Origin: an uncultured bacterium
GTDB lineage: Bacteria; Patescibacteriota; Gracilibacteria; Absconditabacterales; Absconditicoccaceae
DNA length: 64,000 nucleotides
Assembly (NCBI GenBank): GCA_937862565.1
Contig: CALMFT010000032.1
Coordinates: 3,175 to 67,174, forward strand
Direction: 5' to 3'
Made by a program: the position numbers and the translations under genes. Shown piece after piece: positions 12,960-53,310 of the stretch. Each line of letters opens with the position of its first letter. Within the stretch, counting starts at the first letter, position 1. The notes below the pieces were generated by a model, which was given only the letters and a program-made list of their open reading frames with translations, was not told the DNA's origin and did not search any database.

Positions 12960-13880
12960 TTAATAATTAGCGATTCTGTAGAGCATTAAAGCCATTTCTC
13001 TTCTTGTAATGTTTACTTTATCTAGAGTGTTATAATCAAAGTTTAGTCCTCCTACTACACCATAATCTAAAGCCTTATTATAATATCCTTCATATCGTTT
13101 CTTACCTGATTCATCTAGGGATCAATCTTTAGTTCTTATCAATACTGCTATAGCTTGAGCTCTTGTAAGTTTATTCTGTGGATAAAATTTCCCTCCATCT
13201 CCTTTAAATATACCTAGACTTAAAGCTAAGAGTACATTTCCTTTTAAGGATTCAGAGATTTGTTTCAAATCACTAGGAGCCAATATTGAACCTTCATCCA
13301 TATCTCTTTGTAATATTTTAAGAGCAAATTGAGTAAAGAATTTAGCTGCTTGTTCTCTTGTTAATTGTCCATCTCCATTAAAGTCATAAGCATTTTGAAA
13401 ATCTGTTAAACTATTGTTATACATCCACAATACAGCTCTTTGAGTTTCAGAGTAAGATAGTCTCTTACCATTAAAGTACATGGTATTTCAATTCACATCA
13501 GTATAGTAACCATTCTCTTTACTAGCTCTTTCATCTACTTCAGTGGAATCTTTTAAGTATTTATTGTAAGTATTTATTCTATTTTGTGCAGAAGTTAATT
13601 TTCTTTCATAACTACTATATAGTAATTCCATTTCATTACTTTGTGCATTTGTTCTTATTAAAGGTAGTCAAGAAAAGGCTAATTTAAGTTTGTATTGTAA
13701 GTTTTCTAATTCTTCATTGGTTTTTACTTGATCTAGTTCATCAAGCACTTCTCTCATTTGAGTAAGAGCTACTGTAGCTCTTTGAACACTGTTTGTAATT
13801 TCTTGATCTGTTAAGGCATTTGTTTTAATTCACACTACCAATAAACAAAGTAGTACGCTGGCAACGAGTAATTTTTGCAT
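12960..13880 (-). CDS. secreted protein with C-terminal SLH-like repeats
   Basis: ATG at 13880. The signal peptide is MQKLLVASVLLCLLVV. Two repeats (QLTREQAAKFFTQFA and KLTRAQAIAVLIR) look like S-layer-homology motifs. The piece 13122-13481 is extended through TGA to TAA at 12960. Confidence 0.5.
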
Positions 13881-19470: not shown

Positions 19471-20919
19471 TTATTGACTTCCACAGTTCACTTGAGTATT
19501 GAGGTTGGTACAAAATGCAAGACATCCTTGTACACTATTGGCATTGAGTTCTTTCACTGTTCCTTTTGTTTTATAAACTAATTTACTCAATTCCGGAAAG
19601 TATAATGTAGTGGAGAGAGGTAGAGCAATTGTGGAGAGTGAATTATCATAGTCTTCCATATTCATGACTTTTGTAAGTGTGTTATTCATCGTAGTACTTA
19701 GTAATACAGCTTTTGCTTCTTCTGCTTCTGTCACATTTCATGCAGATTTACTAAGATAAGGCGCTCTTACCTGACAGGGAATAATTCACATTCTTTGGAT
19801 TGAATACAATTTGTATTGTTCTGTATTGATGTTTTCTCCTTTTATAGTACAGTCTGCCAATATCTTAAGTGCCAAACTTTTACGTTCTTCAAAACTTTGT
19901 ATGATTTCTTTTTTGGTAGGTAAGTTTAAATCTTGAACTGTAGTTCCACGATACTGTACTCATCGCGTAGATCAGTATTCATTAGAAACACCTTTAGATT
20001 TAAGTTTGGAAAGTTTTTCAAATGAAGTTTTGAATTTATTGAGTGTAGTTTTGAGTTCTTTTCCTGTGCTTTTACCAAATTCCTTTCGTAAAGATGTTGT
20101 CTTACCAAAAGTTGCATTGCAGGCAGTTCACAGATTAGCGGTAGCACAAGCGTAAGCGTCATCCAATGTCTTCCCTCGATTTGATCTAATGCTATATCCT
20201 ACTTTCTCATTGGATTCAAATTTAAAATCATTTTTTGGTCTTATTACTATATGATTCTTTACCGCTCTTTGAGTGAAGTTCAACCATCCAATCATCTGTT
20301 TGTAGCTAATTCATGGAGAGAATAATTCTCAATTATTTCATCCCGTCTGAAAAATATCACTATAATTACTGAATACTATTTTTAGATTCTCAACTTGTTT
20401 AACAGGTATTGGATCTGAATATACAAAATTATTGATATGAATTATTGTTTCTTTATCTATTGAATCATCTATTGTTTCTAGCAAATCTTCATCTCTAGTT
20501 AGTACAGATGATCTAGCTCAAGCTACACTTTGCCTGAAAAAATCAGCTATAAAATCTCTACTTACAGCTTTGGTAGTCTGAAGCGATGCTCATTGAATCT
20601 GTCCTCAGATTATTCTTCATTCTCTTTTAAAAACTCATAAATAACTATCAGTTATTTGTTTTAAATAATCTACAAGTAGATTGGTGTTGGCTTGTTTTGT
20701 TCAAGTGGCAATCTTTGAATAATCAACCTTTGAAGTAGATTGTAGAGTGTCGAGAATTGATCTTACAAATTTTGTATATCTGACTAATTCTGGTGGCGTT
20801 AAACTACATGCTTCGCAATCAGTCTTTGTTTCTGAAGGAGTTTCTTGAGCATAAGAAAAAGTCGCTCACCATACTTGTGTCAACAGTAACATAAGAGTAA
20901 ATATGATTTTCCTTTGCAT
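19471..20919 (-). CDS. secreted Cys-containing hypothetical protein (482 aa)
   Basis: I followed one frame codon by codon from ATG at 20919 (MQRKIIFTLMLLLTQVW[TGA]ATFSYAQE, a signal peptide) to TAA at 19471, with many in-frame TGA codons. Track ORF 19926-20162 is out of frame and spurious. Confidence 0.5.
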
Positions 20920-20992
20920 TGATAGGCAATATAATCAAATAATAAGAAAAAGCAAATACTTAGCCCCTGTTTATTCTTGTTGACTACCACTT

Positions 20993-22394: not shown

Positions 22395-24230
22395 TTATTT
22401 AAATCAATTTCTTTTTCTCATAGCTTCTAATTGTTCCACTGTTTTATCAAAAACCTTACCCAGTAATTCGTACCAAGCATCGTCTTTATATAAATCATTT
22501 CGTTTTTCTCTTCTGATATTGAATATTGTGTGCAAAGCTAAGGTGCCAATATCTTTATTATCATGTGAAATTTTGAATGACGTCATTCTCCATTCTGTGC
22601 CCTTGAACAATAAATACTCTAAAGCTTGTTGTGGATCAGGCGTATTGTCTACGGTTCAGTAGGTTTTTATAAGTAATTCTTTGTAAGTATTTTGTAGTCT
22701 ATTTTTTTCTTTTTCTTCAAGATACTTTATTTTGGTATTTAATTCTTCTTGAGTGAGGTTAAAAACCTTACCCAGTAATTCGTACCAAGCATCGTCTTTA
22801 TATAAATCATTTTTTCTCTCTCTTCTGATATTGAATATTGTGTGCAAAGCTATGATGCCAATATCTTTATTATCATGTGAAATTTTGAATGACGTCATTC
22901 TCCATTCTGTGCCCTTGAACAATAAATACTCTAAAGCTTGTTGTGGATCAGGCGTATTGTCTACGGTTCAGTAGGTTTTAATGATTAATGTTTTACAAAT
23001 ATTTCTTACTAATTCTGAAATTTGTTCCACTGTTTTATCAAAAACCTTACCCAGTAATTCGTACCAAGCATCGTCTTTATATAAATCATTTCGTTTTTCT
23101 CTTCTGATATTGAATATTGTGTGCAAAGCTAAGGTGCCAATATCTTTATTATCATGTGAAATTTTGAATGACGTCATTCTCCATTCTGTGCCCTTGAACA
23201 ATAAATACTCTAAAGCTTGTTGTGGATTTGGTATGTTACCTTCATTATTTCCATATTTATTAATTACCAATTCTCTAGCAATCTCACTTGTTAATTTAAT
23301 TCTTTTAAGAGAGTTAGTTTTTTCTTTCTTTGTTTTTGATTCTTTATTTTTTTCGCGTGACATATCTTCTTGTGTTTCAGGACGATTCTCTTGAGTAAGG
23401 TAATTCAAAATAACAGTTTTTCGATCTGTAAGTCCTTGAGGATTAAGTTCTAGAGGATCTTTATAGGAGAAAAATTTCACTCTTGGATGGTTTACTGCAC
23501 GGTGATCTGATTTTTTGTAGGTGGTAAGTTCTTTTTTTGTGAGATGTCCCTCAGTGATATAACTTGCTTGTCCATAAAGATTATTGATATATAGAGTTTT
23601 GGGATAGGGAGTAGTAAGTTTGAAAACAATATATGATTTTTTTCTCATACTACGAGGATCTACTTTACCCTGTAGTGGACGATCTATGAGTTGTATATGA
23701 GGGTTTTCTTTGAGGATTTGTAGTACTAAAGAATATTTATCAAATTCTCTGGTATGTTGTTCTGGATTTCGATTTCAGTTAGCAAATCCTGTTTGGGGTT
23801 TTATTTCATCAGGAGGAAGTATAATGTCATCAATAAATTCTATTTCAGGGGAAATATTTTCTCATACTGATACTGATGATTGATCTTTCTTGCTAATGTT
23901 CTGTAAAAAGAGCTTTAAAGTATGGAAATTTAAGTTCTCTTCAGGAATTTGTAGGTTATTATCCTTGTTTGCTTGAATGAGTAATGCATGTTCTATGTTC
24001 ATAAGATTTCTTCCTATTTCTGAGGATATTGAATAACTTGTAGTAGAATTTTTTCGATCTTGCTTTATCACTTCTAGATATTCCATAATGAAAGATGTTC
24101 CTAGTTCGGGGTGACGTAGAAAGTCTTTTATGGAGTCTGATATTTGTTGTTGGGTGGTGTATAAAAGATCCATTGAATTAGTAGAGTGATTATTTCAGTT
24201 TTCTAATGAAGATAATTTTTGTTTATCCAT
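22395..24230 (-). CDS. tandem-repeat protein A (611 aa), paralog of 31720-33885, directly downstream of pilC
   Basis: Pieces 23862-24173, 22968-23648, 22656-22922 and 22404-22610 all share one frame and join through TGA. The C-terminal half is 3 copies of a ~100-aa module: PQQALEYLLFKGTEWRMTSFKISHDNKDIG..ALHTIFNIRRE..NDLYKDDAWYELLGKVF. Confidence 0.6.
22404..23232. repeat. near-identical tandem DNA repeats (period 312 bp, about 2.7 copies) inside gene 22395-24230
   Basis: Stretches of about 200 nt are identical by eye between 22438-22636 and 23032-23230. The junction string ...cttgttgtggatcaggcgtattgtctacggttcagtaggtttt occurs at both about 22605-22668 and about 22917-22980. Confidence 0.85.
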
Positions 24231-31719: not shown

Positions 31720-33885
31720 CTATACTTTTCTTTTCTTTGATTTCAATTGTTTGATTTCTGCAATATCTTTATCAAAGATTTTAGCGAGCAATTGGAATCG
31801 TGTTTCTTCAATAAAATAATCATTATTATCAGACTTGTGAATACCACATTTGCCAGCTAAAAATGTTAATGCTTTTATTTTTTTATTTAACATTATCTTG
31901 AATTCTTTTGTTCTTCGTATTATACCTTGAACAGCTAAAAATTCTAAAGTTTTTTGTTCTGTTCCTTTTCCAAAATCTTCCATGACTCTTTGTTTAATAA
32001 GTTCGGGAGTAATAATATCCATTTCGATAGGAGTATCAAAAATTTTAGCCAGTAATTCATACCAAACATCTTCTTTATAATATTCCCCATTTTTCTCTCT
32101 GAATATTCAATATGTCTTAGCCATAACTATTACTGACATTGTTTCATCTTGTCATTCTGGAGTAATTTTGAAGATTTCTTTTATCCAAGTTAAGTTTTTG
32201 AGAAGCAAAAAATTTAGAGCCTTCTGTCCGGTGGGTTTTCATTCTTTTGAAGTTCCATACTTTTCAATGATAGCTTTTTTTATGAACGTCTGTTTTCTTT
32301 TGATAATATATTCTTTATTTAAGCCGAAAAATTTACTTAAAAATTCTTCTCGTGCACCTTGAGTATAGTAATCATTACTTTTCTCTCTATGCACGTCAAA
32401 TAAAGTATAAAGAGCCATAAGTTTTATTTCTTGGTGTCAATATTCTATTTTAAATTGGCTTTTTGATCGAGAGGATTCTTTAGACATTAGAAAATCTTGA
32501 GTTTTTTGAATATCTCCATCACCATACGTTTCAATTATCTTTTTTCTTGCGATATCAGGAGTTAGTATTTCAGTATGAAATTCTTTATCAAAAATTTTTC
32601 ATAAAAGTTCATACCATGCACTATCTTTAAAATATTCTGAAGAAGATTTTTTTTGTATTCAAAAGAGTTTTGCAATCCTAACAGTACCTATATTTTCACC
32701 ATTATAAACTATTCTAAAATTAGCCACTCTCCATGCATGACCATGAGAAAGCAAGAATTCTTCTGATTTTTGTACGCTAATACTTCCATCTTCAAGCTTT
32801 CCGAAGGTTTCTAGGATATTTTCTTTTACTGCTTTTAATACAAAAGCATCCGGCTTTAATGTTTTTTTCTTTCCAGTATGAGAGCTAGTGCTTGTTTTTT
32901 TAGTAATTTTTTCGAATGGTTCAACTTTACATTCAAAAATTTTACCTAATAATTCAAATCGAGCACTATCTGCATAAAGTTCATGGAAATCTTCTCTATA
33001 AACCTTATATTGTTTTGCAAAAAATACTAAAGGTTTCCATGCTCCATTTATCGATACTTTGAAAAATTCCTTTCTCCATCTAATAGTTTGTTTATGTAAA
33101 AATCCCAAAACTTCTTCTTGCGTAAGATGAATTCAATCTTTATTAGAAAATTTCTGAATAATAGCTTTTTTAAGACTATTCTTATCCAAGTATACGATAT
33201 CATTTTTTATTCTTATTTTTTTTCACTGAGTATTTTTGGTTTTTGTATTATGCTGTCGAGCACTATCTTCTAAAGATTGAGCTAATTTATGTGTATATAA
33301 TGCGGAAAGTGGTTTTACAACTTCTTCAGAAGCAACTTCTGGAAGTATATTTAGATTTTGTAGTGATTTAGATGTTGTTCGTTCATTCATTCGTTCTTCT
33401 TTGGTTTTTCCTTCTCAGCTTGATTGAGATCCACTACTTTTATTTAGATTATTTTTGCTAATCTCTCTTAGTTTTTGTTTGAGTCTAAATATACTGAGAT
33501 CTTGTGGCCAAATTCCAAGTTGATTATCTACGTTAGCAAGACCTAGTAAAGACTGATCGATACTTACAAGTTTTTGTGCTACTTCATGTATATTAGGAAT
33601 TTTCAAAGTGCTTATGTTTCCCAAGTGATTACCTCTATCAAGAGTTTCAATAACATCTACTTTTGTACGTGCTTTACTTTTCCAGCTTATTTTTATCTCT
33701 TCTATTATTTCGATAACTTCATCAAGTCCCATTACACCATATTGTAAAAAATCTTTAATAATCTGAGAAATATCTTCTTGAGCTTTTTGTAAAAAATCCA
33801 CTGAAGCATTTTTACTTTGTAATTGATTTTTCAGTTGTACATGATTTCTCGGGAGAGAAAGACTTGGATTTGTATCTTGAGACAT
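31720..33885 (-). CDS. tandem-repeat protein B (721 aa), paralog of 22395-24230, directly downstream of pilB
   Basis: Pieces 33415-33885, 32659-33108 and 31720-32022 share one frame and are bridged by TGA-containing sequence. There are 5 diverged copies of the same ~95-aa module (...EFLL.....W......FKI......IG......F.REK...Y..D.WYELL.KIFD). The N-terminus ISQIIKDFLQYG resembles ISDSIKDFLRHP of protein A. Confidence 0.55.
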
Positions 33886-46215: not shown

Positions 46216-49200
46216 TTATTCTTCATTATACAAAGTGTAAGTTATCGTAAATGTATATGTTCAAATACTTGTATAGGCTGGGATAAGAAGTTTGATATTC
46301 AACTTAGCGCCATATACTCAAGGAATATTATTGTTTATTCCACTTGGGCGATAGATAAAGTTGTATATACTATCTCATGGCTGATATGTTGCCAATCCTG
46401 TGTTGAGTAAAACATTTGGGTTTGGGAATCAAGAAATATTTTGTAGTCATCCAGTAGTTTGGACTTGTATATTAGAGTTACTCAAAACGTTAGCATTTGA
46501 TCATGATAGATCAGTAAATTCTAAGGTAGTGTAATATCAAGTATCACTAGCTTTTTCGTCATTCAGTTCAAAATAATCTGTATCAAAACTAATCTCTTGA
46601 TCGTAACCATGCGCTTGTATAACTCCACTATAGATAAAATCTGGTGCTGTAATACATAGCTTGTCTGCCGGTGTGTATTGGATATTGATATATCAAGTTG
46701 CGATATTGGACATTCCTCAACTTCCATCTGTTACTTGGTAGGTAAAACTATCCATCCCGATAAATCCAGTATTCGGTGTATATAAGAATCATCAACTACT
46801 ATAAAGAGTTATAGTTCCTGAAAGCGTTCACAGCACAAGCGAGACAGTATAAGGTCAGTTTATAATTTTTCAGCTTATATAGTCTATATCTATATCATTT
46901 GAAGCTACTCCAGAAAGCACAGATATCAATAATCAGGTGTTTGGTTCGCCATAATAATTATCATTAATTGCTGTTGGCAAATCATTGATACATGTTACTG
47001 TAATCTGCACAGTGCCTGTGTTTGAATGAGAAAAATCATCATATGCTACATAAGAAAAGTTATCCACTCCACAATAGTCGGGATCAGGTTCATACAATAT
47101 TCCAGTTGTTCAATAAAACGATATTGTACCATGAAGTGGGGAACCAAAAGTTTCTATTGGTCATAGATAGAGCGGATCTCAATCAGGATCATAATCATTT
47201 GCCAAGATATATACTACTCAAGTTCCATCCTCATTGATAGTTCAAGTATCATTAACAGCAACTGGAGATGTATTTGGACAAAGGACGGTGACAGAAACTG
47301 TTGCTGGAGATATACTTAACTTCCCACTAGAGTCCACTAGAGAATAGGTAAAATTATCAATTCCACATCCTGTTCATGTTGGTACATATCGATTATTACC
47401 TCAGCTCATTATAATTGTTCCCAGACTTGGAGTACTCATTCCTGTAAAGGTAAATGATTGACCTGTGTTTGGGTCATAATCATTTCAAGTAAGTTGAAGT
47501 GAAACAGGAATGGCGTTTGGTGTTGAGAAAGAATCATTTATTGCGACAGGAGCAAGATTACTACAAGGAACAGTAATCGTAACCACTCATGTATTTGATA
47601 TATAAGTTCCAGTCGATCAATCAGTAGGTGTTTGTCATACATATTGAACAAAAGGTGTTCTCAAAGATCTAGTTGTTGTAAGAGTAGTTAAAACATTTCA
47701 TCCACGAGATAAACTATTTACTGGAGAAACATAACCATAAAATGTATTTAAACTATAAGCCGCTGGATAACTTGTTGTTGTCGTAATAATATTTGATTCT
47801 TTGTATATAAAATAACCTCTTGTGTTTGCAACTGAAGCAACTCAAGTTGATAAGTTTACTCAGGTTGAACCTGTTCCGTAGCCATTGTATAATTTTAATT
47901 GGACCGCTGCTGTTCCATTGGTTTGGAATGAAGCAGCATAAACAAGTTTTCATACAGGTATGGAATTTATACTTGGCTCTACTGTGTTATTGCCAAACGC
48001 AAGAGTAGATAATCAGGTATTTGCTGCGCCATACAAGCTTACTTGAGACATAGCAGTTATATCATTATATTCACTTTGTGTAATTGATACCCACGTTTTA
48101 GTTCCTGCACTATTATAGTTTGTCAAACTTGAACTCAATTTTGAAGCTGCCGCCTCATTTCATTTATAGAAATAGTCATCCTCTATTTTATATGTAAAAC
48201 TTGTAGTTCCACAAAATCATGGTTCAGGTACAAATTTTACTTTGTTTCAGGATATAGTTACACTACCACTCAGTGGTTGAGATAGTCAGGTTATTGTTGC
48301 TCATGAACTTAAATTTACATCATTATTTAGAACAGATATCAAACCTGAAGTGTTTTCTGCCACTGAACCAGTATCGTCAAGAGCTGTCGGTTTATCACAG
48401 TTTACGGTAATACTAATTGTTCCTGTATTTGAGATATAACTAGCTATCGATGAATCACTCGTTGCCAAGCCCTGTAGTTTGAATAGATACGGGTATAAAT
48501 TTGATACGCTTGTAGTGTTTCATGGGCTGTATCTACTCCATGATTGTGGCGACCCAACTAAACTCGACGCAGCAACCATATTGGAATTTTGATACATACC
48601 TAGTGCTCAATTCGTAGCGATATTCTTATCAGCTCATTTAAGAATATAATAAGCATCTTGACCAACGCCTGTAGAGACTAATCATGGTAATTGATTTCAA
48701 ATAGTCTGACCAGAAGTGTATGCAGAATTAAATAATTTAACTAATGATCAGCTAGTGTAAGTTTTAACTGCTTGTGTTTTAAATCTTATAGCATAAATAT
48801 AATTATTTGCTGGCACTGCAAATCCCTGATAGCTTGAAATGCTACCTGATCACAAAGCCATCGTATATCAAACCGCTCATCGTGCATATTGTGAAGCATT
48901 CATAATATCGGCATTAGCTCCTACAGTAACAGTATTGGTAACTCATGTTGATAATGAATTATACTCTGAAAATGTGATTTGTACCCAGTCTCACACGCTT
49001 GCATTTCTATATCAAGTCTTACTACTTACCAAAGAATTTTCAATCGTTCACGGTTCATTTTGTAATTGGTAGTTTATCTTTTCTGTCCCACAGAATCCTT
49101 TAGATGGTTGATAGCTAACATTTCTTCATGATAAGCTCATAATTCAATTTTGAGCACCAGTCAAATTTATAATTTTTGTACCCGTAATAACCAATAAATC

Positions 49201-52200
49201 ATTTACTGTAGGATCAAAGTTGAAAATTTGATTTTCTGTCCCGCTTAATAAATCATCAACCGCAACTGGTTTACAAACCACAAGCACATCTACTGTGCCT
49301 GTATTGGACAAAAAGGTTCAATCAGTCACTCGGTACTTGAAAGTATCCAGACCACAAAATCAAGAATTTGGAGTATATTCAATACCGGTTCAAATTACTG
49401 TCAAAGTTCAGCCACTTCAAGCTATAAATCAAGAAATAGATAAGGTATCCCCAACATTGTAATCAAAATCATTATTTAATACTTTTATTATGGAGCTTTG
49501 AGTTGATCAAATTGTTACATTGTCATTTATGGCGACAGGAGCAACATTAACAAGAGCACATGATTTAATGCTATTGCTTGTCGTGAATCCTGTAACTAAA
49601 ACTGGTGTTGGTCTATTGATAAGGGTGCCGTCACCAATTTCTCCGTAAGTATTTCTTCCTCGGCAAGCCAATTGTCAGTCAGAGGTTACGCCACAAGTAT
49701 GAAGAGTTCCTACGCTTATCTTAGAAAAACGAAGAGTAGTATTTACAGAGACAAGACCAGTGCTACTCAATGCCGTGCCACCTCCAAGCTGATTATTGGT
49801 TCATAATCCTCGACAATATGCTTTTCAAGTTTTTGTAAGAGCACAGGTATAATTATTTCATGCCTGTATATCCATAATGCCTGTTAAACCTAGAACAGAA
49901 GTAGATACTGGACTTGTTTGAGTAATAGTATTACCATTTCATAAAGCTCCATTGGTATTTGCTCATCGACATTTTGCGGTGCCATTGTTTAGCAATACAC
50001 AACTATGTGTGTTTCATACAGATAAAGAAATTGCATTGTTTATTCCAGTGACCTGCGTAGGTAAAGCATTGGATGCGGTTACAGGAGTTCCATCACCTCT
50101 CATTCAGTTAGCATCACTACCCTGACATCGAACAGTGCCACTAAAAGTAAGAGCACACGCAAAAGCTGAACCAGCTTGGACTTTTTTTATCATTCCAATT
50201 CAAGTGAAAACGTCTATAGGTATTCATGTATCGGCTGCTGTATTCTGTCTAATTATATAGTTTGCTCCTTCTCACCAGCATTTTGCAGCACCATTGTTAA
50301 AAATACCACAAAAAGTCTGAGATAATGAGCTAGAAGAAAGATCAAAAATATTGTTCCCAGATACTATACCTACAGGTGTTGACTTTACAACATTGGTGTT
50401 ATCTCAAAGCTGTCTGTTAGCATTATATCACCAAGACTTACCTATTCCACTATTCGAAATGGCAACACTAGAACGATAATTCATAGCTATTTCAAAAATT
50501 CATGACGTCAGACCAATTGTCTGAGTAGGTACCGATTTGGATGTAGATCAGCCATCTCCGATAGCAGGATATGCTGCAGTTTCATATCATCGACATTTTG
50601 TACTTCAAGATGAAGTAATTGCACAAGTATTATATTGTGCGAGACTTACGCTATCGATTTCTTTACAGTCATTGTAAGTGTTTTCACAAGGAACATATAC
50701 CTGTATTGATCCTGTGTTAGATATAAATCAGCTTTTATAAAGTATTTTATAATTAAAATTGTCAGTGCCACAGAATCAAATATTTGGAGTGTAAGTAATT
50801 AATCATTGATTGTTGTAAGTAATGTTACCATTTGAAGGTCATACAATTCAGGTGAAAATAATATTTCCAGAAATAGCTGATATATTACCTGATTTCACAA
50901 TCTGCAAGGTTGTTGCTGTGTTTTGATGAGTATAGATATAATCATTAAAAACATAACCAGATAATATAGGCGGAGTATAGTTAGTATTTCTAGCCCAAAG
51001 ATTAAACGGTCTAATTTGAGCTTGGTTAAATTTTAAAGTTGCAGATGATCATGGAATCCAATAAGCTCAGTTCGCATTACCACAGAGTTGGACTATAGCA
51101 TTATTGAGTCTCGGTACTGCAGTGTTACAGGTTGCTCATACAAAACTAGTCATAATTGCTGCTGCGCCAGTCCATGCAGCATTATCCAAAAGTCATCTAT
51201 GTACTGGTGCATAATTACGAAAGTTTGTCAGAACAGTGGGATTAGTAGTCGTTACAGACCATCAACTATTTGTCTCATTTATCATGAGTTGACTGAGATC
51301 AAATTGACTAGTCACTCAAGATGATATTATTTTATCAGATTGCAAAGTCATTCATGTGACTATACCATATACAACCCCGGTCCCATTTAAATTATTCTCT
51401 GAAGCAACCAATAGCCATCATCCTGGAATTACTATACTATCAAAACTCTTACCGCTAAGATTGAAATAATATGTTCAAGTTGTTGTTACTCAAGAAGCAG
51501 CATACAGTGAGGTAAATGGATTTCCTAAACTACCATCTCCAAAGAATGAAGGAAAGTATGAAAAAGTAAAAGTAGAAGCGCCACAGGTATAAAATGTAAT
51601 TTTATGATTCAATACTTTTACACTATCTATCTGGTCTACTGAGCTTACTGATCAATTTTGATTACAGTTGGCTTCAGGATTGGCAGTTAATCAAACTATA
51701 CCAGGATCTGATTCTCACTCATGTTGTACTTTTAGATCTACAACCGCTCCTTCCATACCTTCATCAACATCAAAATTGATTATTACTGGTTTTGAGAATA
51801 TAAGATGTTCACCCTCAATACCAAATTCAAAACTATAAGAAAACGCACTATCAATTTGATCAGAGTTTAGTTTAATTAATACATCTTTTGTTAATTTTAA
51901 TGCTTTCAAATCAACTGCTTCATCCAATTGAGATTCTTCAATATTAATACCAAATTTTTCAAGCTCAAGTTTATTTGTACTTTTGGTATCAATTTCTAAA
52001 TCTCAAGGTAATGTTATAGATAAATGTTCATCATCGCTAGACAATTCAATTTCCTTATTTGTATGAAGCGAATCAATATCATTTTTTTGAACTGATCAAT
52101 CTTTAGAATACTTTATTAAATCTCACTTAATTTGTTTAATAAACTGCTTACTATCTATTTTCACCTTATATTCTCAGATTATTTTTAATTGTTCATTATT

Positions 52201-53106
52201 TTTCAAATACTGTTCTCTATACTCATCTAGACTAAGTTTATTTTTACTTACTATACGCACTCCATCAACTACATATCGTTTGTCATCATCTCACTTTAAA
52301 ATTGTAAATCTATGTCCTTGATATGCAATTTCCTTATATTTAGCCTCTTTAAAAGCTATAATATCAAAAACAGTATTATCATTTTTATTATAACTTTCAT
52401 CCAATGCAGAAATAAATTTTTCAGGGTTTTCTTTTACTGAATCATAATTTACTAAATCAGTATATTGAGCCCAAAGATCTATCGCATCTCATCTGGGTAT
52501 ATTTTTTAATCAAGTTACTTTACTAATATACAAATATGTATCATATGAACAAAAAGTCATAGAATTATTTTCCCTATAAGTTCTGAATGGAAATACAGAC
52601 GATAGATTAACTTTCCCATTTTCATCAAAACGTGTATTTATAAATGGTTTGATGGTAACTATCTTTCAAGAAATTTCTTCATCTGTTCATGAAATGGATC
52701 AAAATTCTCATATGCTTTCTTCACTTATTCAGTCATTATTATTAGTTTTACTATCATTTTCACTTCAAGTTTGTGTCATTTGAAAATTATATAATACTCA
52801 AATTCACTGATTTACTTGATTCAAGATTTCTCAATTCATCAATACACTTTCTGAGTTTATTTTTGTTTCTTCACTTGTCTTAATTTTATCTCACAAGTTT
52901 TCTGATTGTTGCTCAAGTTGTGAATCAAATAGCGCTCAAGATGGCTCAGTTGTTTTTTGTATATCAGAAAAACTATTTTGCTGTTTATATGCTTCTATCT
53001 CAGCATCATTTAAATATATATCTAAATAATCTGAAAAAATAGGAGTATAATTGAAACAGTTTATCGTAAACAAAAAAACAAACATAAAGTTGAGTTTCTT
53101 GAACAT
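46216..53106 (-). CDS. giant secreted surface protein (2296 aa): signal peptide, ~900-aa N-terminal region without recognised domains, RCC1-like repeats, cadherin-like/Ig-like domains
   Basis: I translated it codon by codon in one frame from ATG at 53106 (MFKKLNFMFVFLFTINC...) to TAA at 46216, with no TAA/TAG and more than 100 in-frame TGA codons. The RCC1-like repeats (about 49600-50650) read C[W/CGA]G.N..GQLGDG....P. At least 5 modules read NDxxDP.G....GT...YTP..GFCG.D.F.Y.V.D...SNTG.V.I.V.C. Only track ORF 51715-51927 overlaps it. Confidence 0.75.
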
Positions 53107-53273
53107 TATTATATTACAAGTGTTAGAACATTAAATTGCATTCCAGTTTATAGTATATAGGAAATTTCTTAATAAGCTAAAAAATACGCTACAATAGAGT
53201 ATTGTGATTTACTATTATTTGACAAAATAAAAATTTATAAACATAATACTGCTATATTAAACTCGCTAAATCA

Positions 53274-53310
53274 TAAATAAAAAAAACGCCATAGAATTTA
53301 TCTATAGCGT
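53274..53310 (-). terminator. rho-independent terminator after the M23 peptidase gene
   Basis: On the minus strand: ACGCTATAG-ataaatt-CTATGGCGT followed by a T-run. Confidence 0.65.

Follow-up and report, generated by a model that had tools for sequence, protein, structure and literature searches.

What occupies a 6.9-kb apparent gene desert in the genome of an uncultured member of the Absconditabacteria (SR1)? The desert lies at positions 46216-53106 of a 64,000-nucleotide stretch of DNA, hereafter the window (assembly GCA_937862565.1, contig CALMFT010000032.1, positions 3,175 to 67,174). Read with the bacterial code of table 11, it holds no open reading frame (ORF) longer than 78 amino acids (aa) on either strand. 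We find that the desert is one intact gene, here called the giant gene, which standard gene finders overlook because 111 TGA codons are read as glycine and nine CGA codons as tryptophan. Its product has the composition of a secreted, multi-domain surface protein, and we argue below that it most likely serves attachment to a host or prey cell.

Frame 0 of the desert's minus strand comprises 2,297 codons that include no TAG and a single TAA, the final codon; the remaining two minus-strand frames hold 128 and 153 TAA or TAG codons. With the off-frame stop rate as a model, a run of 2,296 codons without a stop has a chance of approximately 6e-58. Once TGA is taken as sense, the whole window turns gene-dense, with 50 ORFs. 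An earlier interpretation made from the letters alone, hereafter the sequence-only reading, had proposed a single uninterrupted minus-strand frame here and had named in-frame TAA or TAG codons among the observations that would undo it; the proposal holds. Public assemblies also carry a gene call with a 2,296-residue product at this position. The frame could still be non-functional, as a decaying pseudogene or an assembly artefact, or could belong to table 4 (TGA=Trp), given that public gene calls (P0150, P0016) translate it with TGA as tryptophan and that the only non-synonymous differences among strains fall on TGA codons. We regard these possibilities as effectively excluded: beyond the improbability of the frame itself, independent assembly of eleven datasets gave the same sequence, its Pfam domains score well in this frame only, and TGA stands on conserved glycines in RCC1 blades, in Big_9 modules and in housekeeping enzymes.

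The codon assignments can be read from conserved positions. In the seven RCC1-like blades encoded by the giant gene, the tryptophan of the C/S-W-G signature is TGG in two blades and CGA in five, and the glycine that follows it is TGA in four and GGN in three; TGA is also found at the conserved glycine of the GFCG motifs in the Big_9 modules. A neighbouring MsrAB gene reads GCG[CGA]PSF opposite GCGWPSF of solved structures, and an aldehyde dehydrogenase gene reads P[CGA]NFP opposite PWNFP, LEL[TGA]GN opposite LELGGN, and GLG[TGA]YV[CGA][TGA]SD opposite GLGGSVWGSD. At the level of aligned codons, both TGA=Gly and CGA=Trp are thus demonstrated, bearing out the double recoding used in the sequence-only reading, and the RCC1 blades provide an unusually clean demonstration of CGA=Trp inside one gene. 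The same code, UGA=Gly plus CGA/CGG=Trp, was inferred for Absconditabacteria by Shulgina and Eddy (2021; PMC8629427), and the 33% GC content of the window fits this lineage. The only tRNA genes in the 64 kb are tRNA-Met, tRNA-Glu and tRNA-Val; the decoding tRNAs tRNA-Gly(UCA) and tRNA-Trp(UCG) are not encoded within the window. Across all 50 ORFs (19,698 codons) there are 106 CGA, 9 CGG and 144 TGG codons, that is, roughly 54 CGA and 73 TGG per 10,000 codons. This CGA rate clearly exceeds the <37 per 10,000 given for Absconditabacteria, a figure derived from aligned Pfam domains; if the two figures are comparable, the reassignment of CGA to tryptophan would be far advanced here.

Eleven assemblies contain the giant gene, with 0-3 nt differences along its 6,891 bp (ERZ724546, ERZ724533, ERZ724508, ERZ724556, ERZ724535, ERZ28613981, ERZ22161277, GCA_020054605.1, SRR13208891, SRR5676437, SRR24208126). 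The differences are mostly synonymous (TTA to CTA, ATT to ATC), and we take this near-invariance as a probable sign of constraint on the gene. Only two amino-acid changes occur, at codons 793 (L039) and 2093 (L040); each converts TGA to CGA (Gly to Trp) and each lies in a low-coverage contig (2.2x and 4.6x). That both fall on TGA codons has a chance of about 0.2%, and they represent either sequencing error or something real. In public protein collections (P0150, P0016, P0140) the proteins of this organism, the giant protein among them, are present as unnamed table-4 translations, with TGA as tryptophan and CGA as arginine; the public version of the giant protein carries 111 spurious tryptophans and nine spurious arginines. 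A search with the full-length protein returned no orthologue, only matches to RCC1 or Big_9 modules at a coverage of <=25%, and a concatenated query of the B, insert and C-terminal domains described below matched the giant protein alone. Exact peptide patterns of the protein had no match in GTDB species representatives or JGI metagenomes, and a second metagenome scan, made with an alignment of the Absconditabacterales N-terminal region, found nothing.

The mature protein is acidic (isoelectric point 4.6), with a mass of approximately 242 kDa, and can be divided into the regions listed in Table 1. In outline, the gene, the code and the classes of domain given in the sequence-only reading stand, and its number of propeller blades, its description of the first 900 aa and its account of the inserts do not.

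Table 1. The giant gene, the regions of its product and the segment upstream, in window coordinates.
Feature	Residues (aa)	Position	Strand	Remarks
Complete coding sequence	1-2296	46216..53106	-	2,296 codons + TAA; 111 TGA = Gly, 9 CGA = Trp
Signal peptide	1-25	53032..53106	-	assigned by eye and hydropathy; MFKK, 14-aa hydrophobic core, probable cleavage ..PIFS|D
Linker	26-150	52657..53031	-	acidic, polar, low complexity; 19% D+E; no Pfam match
N-terminal conserved region	151-415	51862..52656	-	collinear with Absconditabacterales relatives (blastp, alignment, tblastn)
Lineage-specific module	416-515	51562..51861	-	FEFG..HLIFSKPV..H.G..C..FYTCGAS; two invariant Cys; homologues P0017-P0022
B domain	516-718	50953..51561	-	uncurated extracellular family, ~190 aa
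Big_9 (cadherin-like Ig) module R0	719-807	50686..50952	-	Cys pair 779/807
RCC1-like beta-propeller	808-1185	49552..50685	-	seven-bladed; Pfam, PDB, blade alignment
Big_9 module R1	1186-1278	49273..49551	-	Cys pair 1251/1278
Big_9 module R2	1279-1570	48397..49272	-	interrupted by insert 1; Cys pair 1339/1570 spans insert
Insert domain 1	1346-1556	48439..49071	-	orphan, Cys-free; between penultimate and last strands of R2
Big_9 module R3	1571-1848	47563..48396	-	interrupted by insert 2; Cys pair 1632/1848 spans insert
Insert domain 2	1651-1831	47614..48156	-	Cys-free paralogue of insert 1; between penultimate and last strands of R3
Big_9 modules R4-R6	1849-2143	46678..47562	-	R4, R5 with NDYDP(N/D).(G/D)-type acidic loops
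C-terminal orphan domain	2144-2296	46219..46677	-	ends ..GTYTFTITYTLYNEE; beta-rich, low charge
Upstream control region		53198..53310	-	consensus scan only, not evidence of function

The beta-propeller is recognised by the Pfam models RCC1 (PF00415, 81.5 bits vs a cut-off of 21.7), RCC1_2 (PF13540, 110.5 vs 22) and WD40_RLD (PF25390, 153.8 vs 150), and in the PDB by UVR8 (E=1.6e-39), HERC2 and RCC1. The sequence-only reading had identified the RCC1-like fold but counted about six blades; the blade alignment gives seven consecutive blades of 50-53 aa, each with the signature C/S-W-G-x-N-x-x-G-x-L-G. Blade number and signature are held in common with UVR8, HERC2 and RCC1, whereas the single propeller of the giant protein sits inside an Ig-like array, carries a C-x9-C pair in six of its seven blades, and has CGA for five of its seven signature tryptophans. 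A further pair of cysteines, C814 and C1183, flanks the propeller. Extracellular giant bacterial proteins with RCC1 repeats are known from Oscillospiraceae (bioRxiv 10.1101/2023.11.21.568195).

Surrounding the propeller is the array of Ig-like modules, which had been described as cadherin-like or Ig-like repeats and is now assigned to Pfam Big_9 (PF17963) in seven stretches (262 bits vs a cut-off of 23.6, E=3.5e-79; the strongest at aa 1945-2036). PF17803 and PF17892 are likewise above their cut-offs, and the NCBIfam tandem-95 repeat model NF012211 scores 179.8 bits vs a cut-off of 90. With scores far above the curated cut-offs, loops of the acidic NDxD type and a GFCG...VxC pattern that recurs, the modules resemble those of tandem-95/Big_9/VCBS-type adhesins. 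The giant protein differs from these adhesins in that its array is broken by the RCC1 propeller, in that its best database matches cover <=25% of its length, and in that two of its modules contain nested domains of about 200 aa between their last two strands. These nested domains had been described as unique inserts; they are in fact paralogous to one another (blastp E=2e-6, 32% identity, with which tblastn agrees). Because the Big_9 cysteine pair (GFCG...VxC) is kept across both inserts, we conclude that a domain was inserted into a Big_9 module and then duplicated along with its host module. Insert 1 has no match in Pfam, the PDB or PHROGs, and insert 2 has none in Pfam or PHROGs. The B domain, the inserts, the C-terminal domain and the Big_9 modules have no detectable relation to one another.

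The first ~900 aa, in which no domains had been recognised, contain the lineage-specific module, a B domain of about 200 aa and the Big_9 module at aa 719-807. The B domain has no Pfam or NCBIfam model of its own and is defined by the pattern PFTS..G.YYFN..F.TYV..GW.LVA..LQSD.IL..W.G..CGN..W.P..LW.R. A HMMER search of 1.8 billion representative sequences yielded 117 homologues with E<=1e-3, of which 43 reach E<=1e-10; the proteins that contain them are 120 to 7,000 aa long and have one to five copies each. C-terminal sorting domains of the type IX secretion system (T9SS), TIG domains or ice-binding domains are present in many of these proteins. From a 35-sequence alignment, AlphaFold2 gave a confident model (mean predicted local accuracy, pLDDT, 82; predicted template-modelling score, pTM, 0.81), and a prediction from the single sequence reached pLDDT 32. 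The top PDB fold match of the model is the fibrinogen gamma C-domain (1n73_C), which at E=0.16, probability 0.51 and TM 0.29 is below threshold, and its best match among viral models has E=0.012; neither set of models contains a significant structural neighbour. Among the 35 family members the Pfam Fibrinogen_C model found nothing, nor did a PDB profile search return a fibrinogen-related domain (FReD). A fibrinogen-like resemblance of the modelled B domain is therefore unproven, and we do not accept membership in that family.

The remaining N-terminal portion ties the giant protein to its relatives. The signal peptide proposed in the sequence-only reading is apparent by inspection (MFKK, a 14-aa core and ..IFS|D) and aligns with the N-terminus of two related proteins (L036, L037). 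It is the sole hydrophobic segment of the protein, with the hydropathy maximum at aa 5-25 and no 19-aa window >1.6 anywhere. In the linker that follows, 11/11 glycine codons are TGA. Its closest relatives, L035-L037, run collinear with it over the first ~510 aa, with 23-25% blastp identity over ~535 aa; beyond that point their middle domains are different, and a Big_9 array comes after these. Within aa 151-415 lies the motif GHRxxIxxG...WYVxD, whose tryptophan is encoded by CGA in the giant gene and is W in the relatives. Residues 151-515 have no Pfam, PHROG or PDB match, and the lineage module itself (aa 416-515) matches nothing in Pfam or the PDB. By tblastn this module occurs at 32 loci in Gracilibacteria, Absconditabacterales and metagenome-assembled genomes (MAGs) labelled 'Peribacteria', with E=2e-23 to 3e-10 at 31 of them and a weaker, partial match at L038 (E=2e-4). 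In every case the module is close to the N-terminus of a large signal-peptide protein (500 to >1,600 aa), and a 20-sequence alignment contains 15 invariant columns. The giant protein has both defining traits of this family, the block in its N-terminal part and, probably, the signal peptide.

Most of these loci (L007-L034, from Gracilibacteria MAGs) encode a conserved secreted family of ~1,300 aa that shares the N-terminal module. Neither its representative L011 nor the homologues P0017-P0022 have a Pfam match. Members often carry (H/N)SL(D/E)xLP directly past the signal peptide and end in a conserved C-terminus, ..AGDYxGxVxFGLNLTY-COOH. Together with this family (e.g., P0017, 'hypothetical protein PHY14_02420'), the closest relatives (L035-L037, e.g., MAG SH_SHASGE3bin.15) have the lineage module and the probable signal peptide in common with the giant protein, and L035-L037 additionally resemble it in the preceding ~400 aa, in a Big_9 array and in a TGA share of 34-36% among glycine codons. 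Unlike the giant protein, the relatives have no RCC1, B or insert domains; their middle portions consist of unrelated LamG-like repeats (judged by eye) or have no Pfam match.

The C-terminal domain resists assignment, as the sequence-only reading had stated when it described a beta-rich domain, although it is 153 aa long rather than ~170. It has no PDB or PHROG match, and its Pfam matches are all sub-threshold, the best being WxL (E=0.096, 13.1 bits vs a cut-off of 25) and a K319L-like PKD domain (E=0.12). We did not accept WxL membership, as comparison of profile and sequence gave it no support. Kinship with the C-terminus of the ~1,300-aa Gracilibacteria family was not supported either: a hidden Markov model of the family's C-terminus scored the giant protein no better than 2,000 shuffled sequences, hhalign gave a probability of <1%, and the two termini are not detectably related.

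Several features other than the probable signal peptide suggest an extracellular location. The cysteines form 15 positional pairs, leaving only the signal-peptide cysteine and two singletons: one pair is in the N-terminal module, one in the B domain, six in the first six Big_9 modules (R6 has none), and seven in the propeller (the six C-x9-C pairs and the flanking pair). The hydropathy scan detected no internal transmembrane segment, which together with the paired cysteines fits an extracellular protein. We take as further evidence that homologues of the B domain sit in T9SS-sorted, that is, secreted, proteins.

From these observations we infer export, orientation, anchoring and adhesion as follows. 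The giant protein would be exported via the Sec pathway with a cleavable N-terminal signal peptide and would form, on the outside of the cell, a long and modular fibre stabilised by disulfides. Its conserved N-terminal ~500 aa may be the cell-proximal end, responsible for export or anchoring, because relatives share this portion but differ in their passenger domains. The seven Big_9 modules would form a stalk, along or at the end of which sit five globular candidate binding modules (the B domain, the propeller, the two nested inserts and the C-terminal domain). The most likely role of the protein is to recognise a host or prey cell and attach to that cell's surface; we place the probability of this reading, an Absconditabacteria gene for a Sec-exported modular surface fibre that serves host or prey attachment, at about 0.65. 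Such a role is plausible from the domain content, and it agrees with what has been proposed for Vampirococcus lugosii, a predatory absconditabacterium with code 25 whose proteins of 1,392-4,163 aa, predicted to lie at the cell surface and rich in interaction domains, were suggested to act in recognition of and fixation to the host (PMC8080830). It is likewise in line with proposals for adhesin-type and extracellular RCC1 giants at large. Some observations weigh against it. For the signal peptide, the judgement was made by eye and from hydropathy only. Motif, Pfam and hydropathy scans of the giant protein found no LPXTG, SLH, LysM or transmembrane anchor and no significant WxL domain, so that its attachment to the cell and its proximal end are guesses. 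Ligand specificity is not readable from any domain, and clonality, or the re-assembly of related samples, may explain better than selection why the assemblies are nearly identical.

An unlikely but credible alternative is that the protein has a structural task in the envelope, for example as a surface coat or as a fibre associated with an S-layer, and contributes to a fibrous surface or to cell stacking without specific host recognition. The Big_9 arrays and acidic linker would suit a passive spacer, an S-layer homology (SLH) protein encoded elsewhere in the window suggests an organised wall or S-layer, and the giant sequence does not vary among assemblies, although diversification is frequent in host-recognition proteins. 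However, five distinct globular modules, among them a propeller and domains common to T9SS cargo, are found more typically in proteins that bind than in those that form lattices, and the middle domains differ wholly between relatives, as expected of specificity modules. Less probable still, and in our view doubtful, is a released protein of polymorphic-toxin or enzyme-delivery type, in which the C-terminal orphan domain would be an effector acting on prey and the repeats a delivery stalk. The conserved N-terminus, repeat array and unique C-terminal domain of ~150 aa do resemble polymorphic toxins, the scans for an anchor motif in the protein came back empty, and a secreted M23 peptidase is encoded two genes upstream. 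Yet no part of the protein has a significant match to a toxin or enzyme family (the best, Ntox44 at E=0.096, lies inside insert 1), the gene 71 bp downstream encodes a PIF1-family helicase rather than a small immunity-like protein, and the beta-rich, low-charge C-terminal domain is atypical for nuclease or deaminase toxins.

With attachment as the favoured role, the giant protein joins an already known class, the giant multi-domain surface adhesins in candidate phyla radiation (CPR) bacteria; VCBS-type proteins have also been detected in Gracilibacteria proteomes (PMC11452946). The V. lugosii giants come from the same lineage and share the code, but compared by description they list WD40, TPR, PKD, saposin, DUF11, integrin and fibronectin domains, and neither RCC1 nor 'cadherin' appears in the text of PMC8080830. 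Of interest in the giant gene and its product are the within-gene evidence for CGA=Trp, the lineage-specific N-terminal module, the B family that lacks a curated model, the domains nested in Big_9 modules, and the marked enrichment of UGA-glycine codons.

This enrichment, noted in the sequence-only reading as extreme richness in TGA-glycine, is borne out by counts: TGA accounts for 111/232 (48%) of glycine codons in the giant gene vs 185/1,048 (18%) in the window's remaining 49 ORFs (odds ratio 4.3, p=1.7e-20), and the excess is distributed across all domains. GC content at third codon positions (GC3) is 0.20 in the giant gene vs 0.26 elsewhere in the window. In the related giant genes, too, the TGA share given above compares with mostly 6-27% in their neighbouring genes. 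One other window gene of >100 aa is as TGA-rich, g17 (19471-20955, minus strand), which encodes a 494-aa signal-peptide orphan without a Pfam match and uses TGA in 16 of 30 glycine codons (53%). We rejected TGA enrichment as a general trait of the window's secreted proteins, since the signal-peptide proteins g10 and g41 reach only 20-21%. On the simplest reading, the giant gene is nearer to an AT-biased mutational equilibrium, under weak codon selection and after a long stay in a recoded lineage; such codon usage and long residence would argue against recent import from a standard-code bacterium. More speculatively, and with little likelihood in our estimate, the N-terminal ~500 aa could be an export and envelope-display cassette unique to CPR lineages with UGA=Gly (Gracilibacteria, Absconditabacteria), with interchangeable passenger arrays and a functional role for the high UGA-glycine density. 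That density could be a translational throttle, or a firewall that makes host-interaction genes unreadable outside the recoded lineage; alternatively, it may be a by-product of AT-biased drift.

The surroundings of the giant gene indicate an ordinary chromosomal setting, as neither the orphan regions of the protein nor the small neighbouring genes have a PHROG match, and there is thus no sign of a prophage. Between an upstream 125-aa ORF and the giant gene lies a terminator-like hairpin of ten pairs with a T-run (53286-53310, minus strand), and two promoter-like hexamer pairs (53198-53241) precede the start codon; the hairpin suggests that the giant gene may have its own promoter. The window also encodes a PilB-type T2SSE ATPase, glycosyltransferases and GyrA. 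Its SLH-domain protein has a signal peptide (12960-13880, minus strand, E=3.8e-12), which in a CPR genome hints at SLH-type anchoring to a secondary cell-wall polymer in the source organism. Two paralogous proteins of 611 and 721 aa (22395-24230 and 31720-33885, minus strand), without significant Pfam matches, contain tandem repeats spaced ~90-115 aa apart that end in ..DAWYELLGKVF. The locus of the 721-aa gene is strain-variable, with a 323-aa product called there in L002 (ERZ28613981).

A predicted surface protein of a quarter of a megadalton, from an SR1 bacterium that has been sampled widely, has thus been public only as an unnamed mistranslation and is invisible to table-11 gene callers. 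Functional or structural studies of proteins of this kind presuppose that they are translated with the right code (UGA=Gly, CGA=Trp). Its translation exposes three uncurated domain families: the lineage N-terminal module, the B domain shared with T9SS cargo, and the nested insert domain. With the domain map corrected, specific modules can be put forward as candidates for the machinery by which an uncultured epibiont or predator recognises its host.

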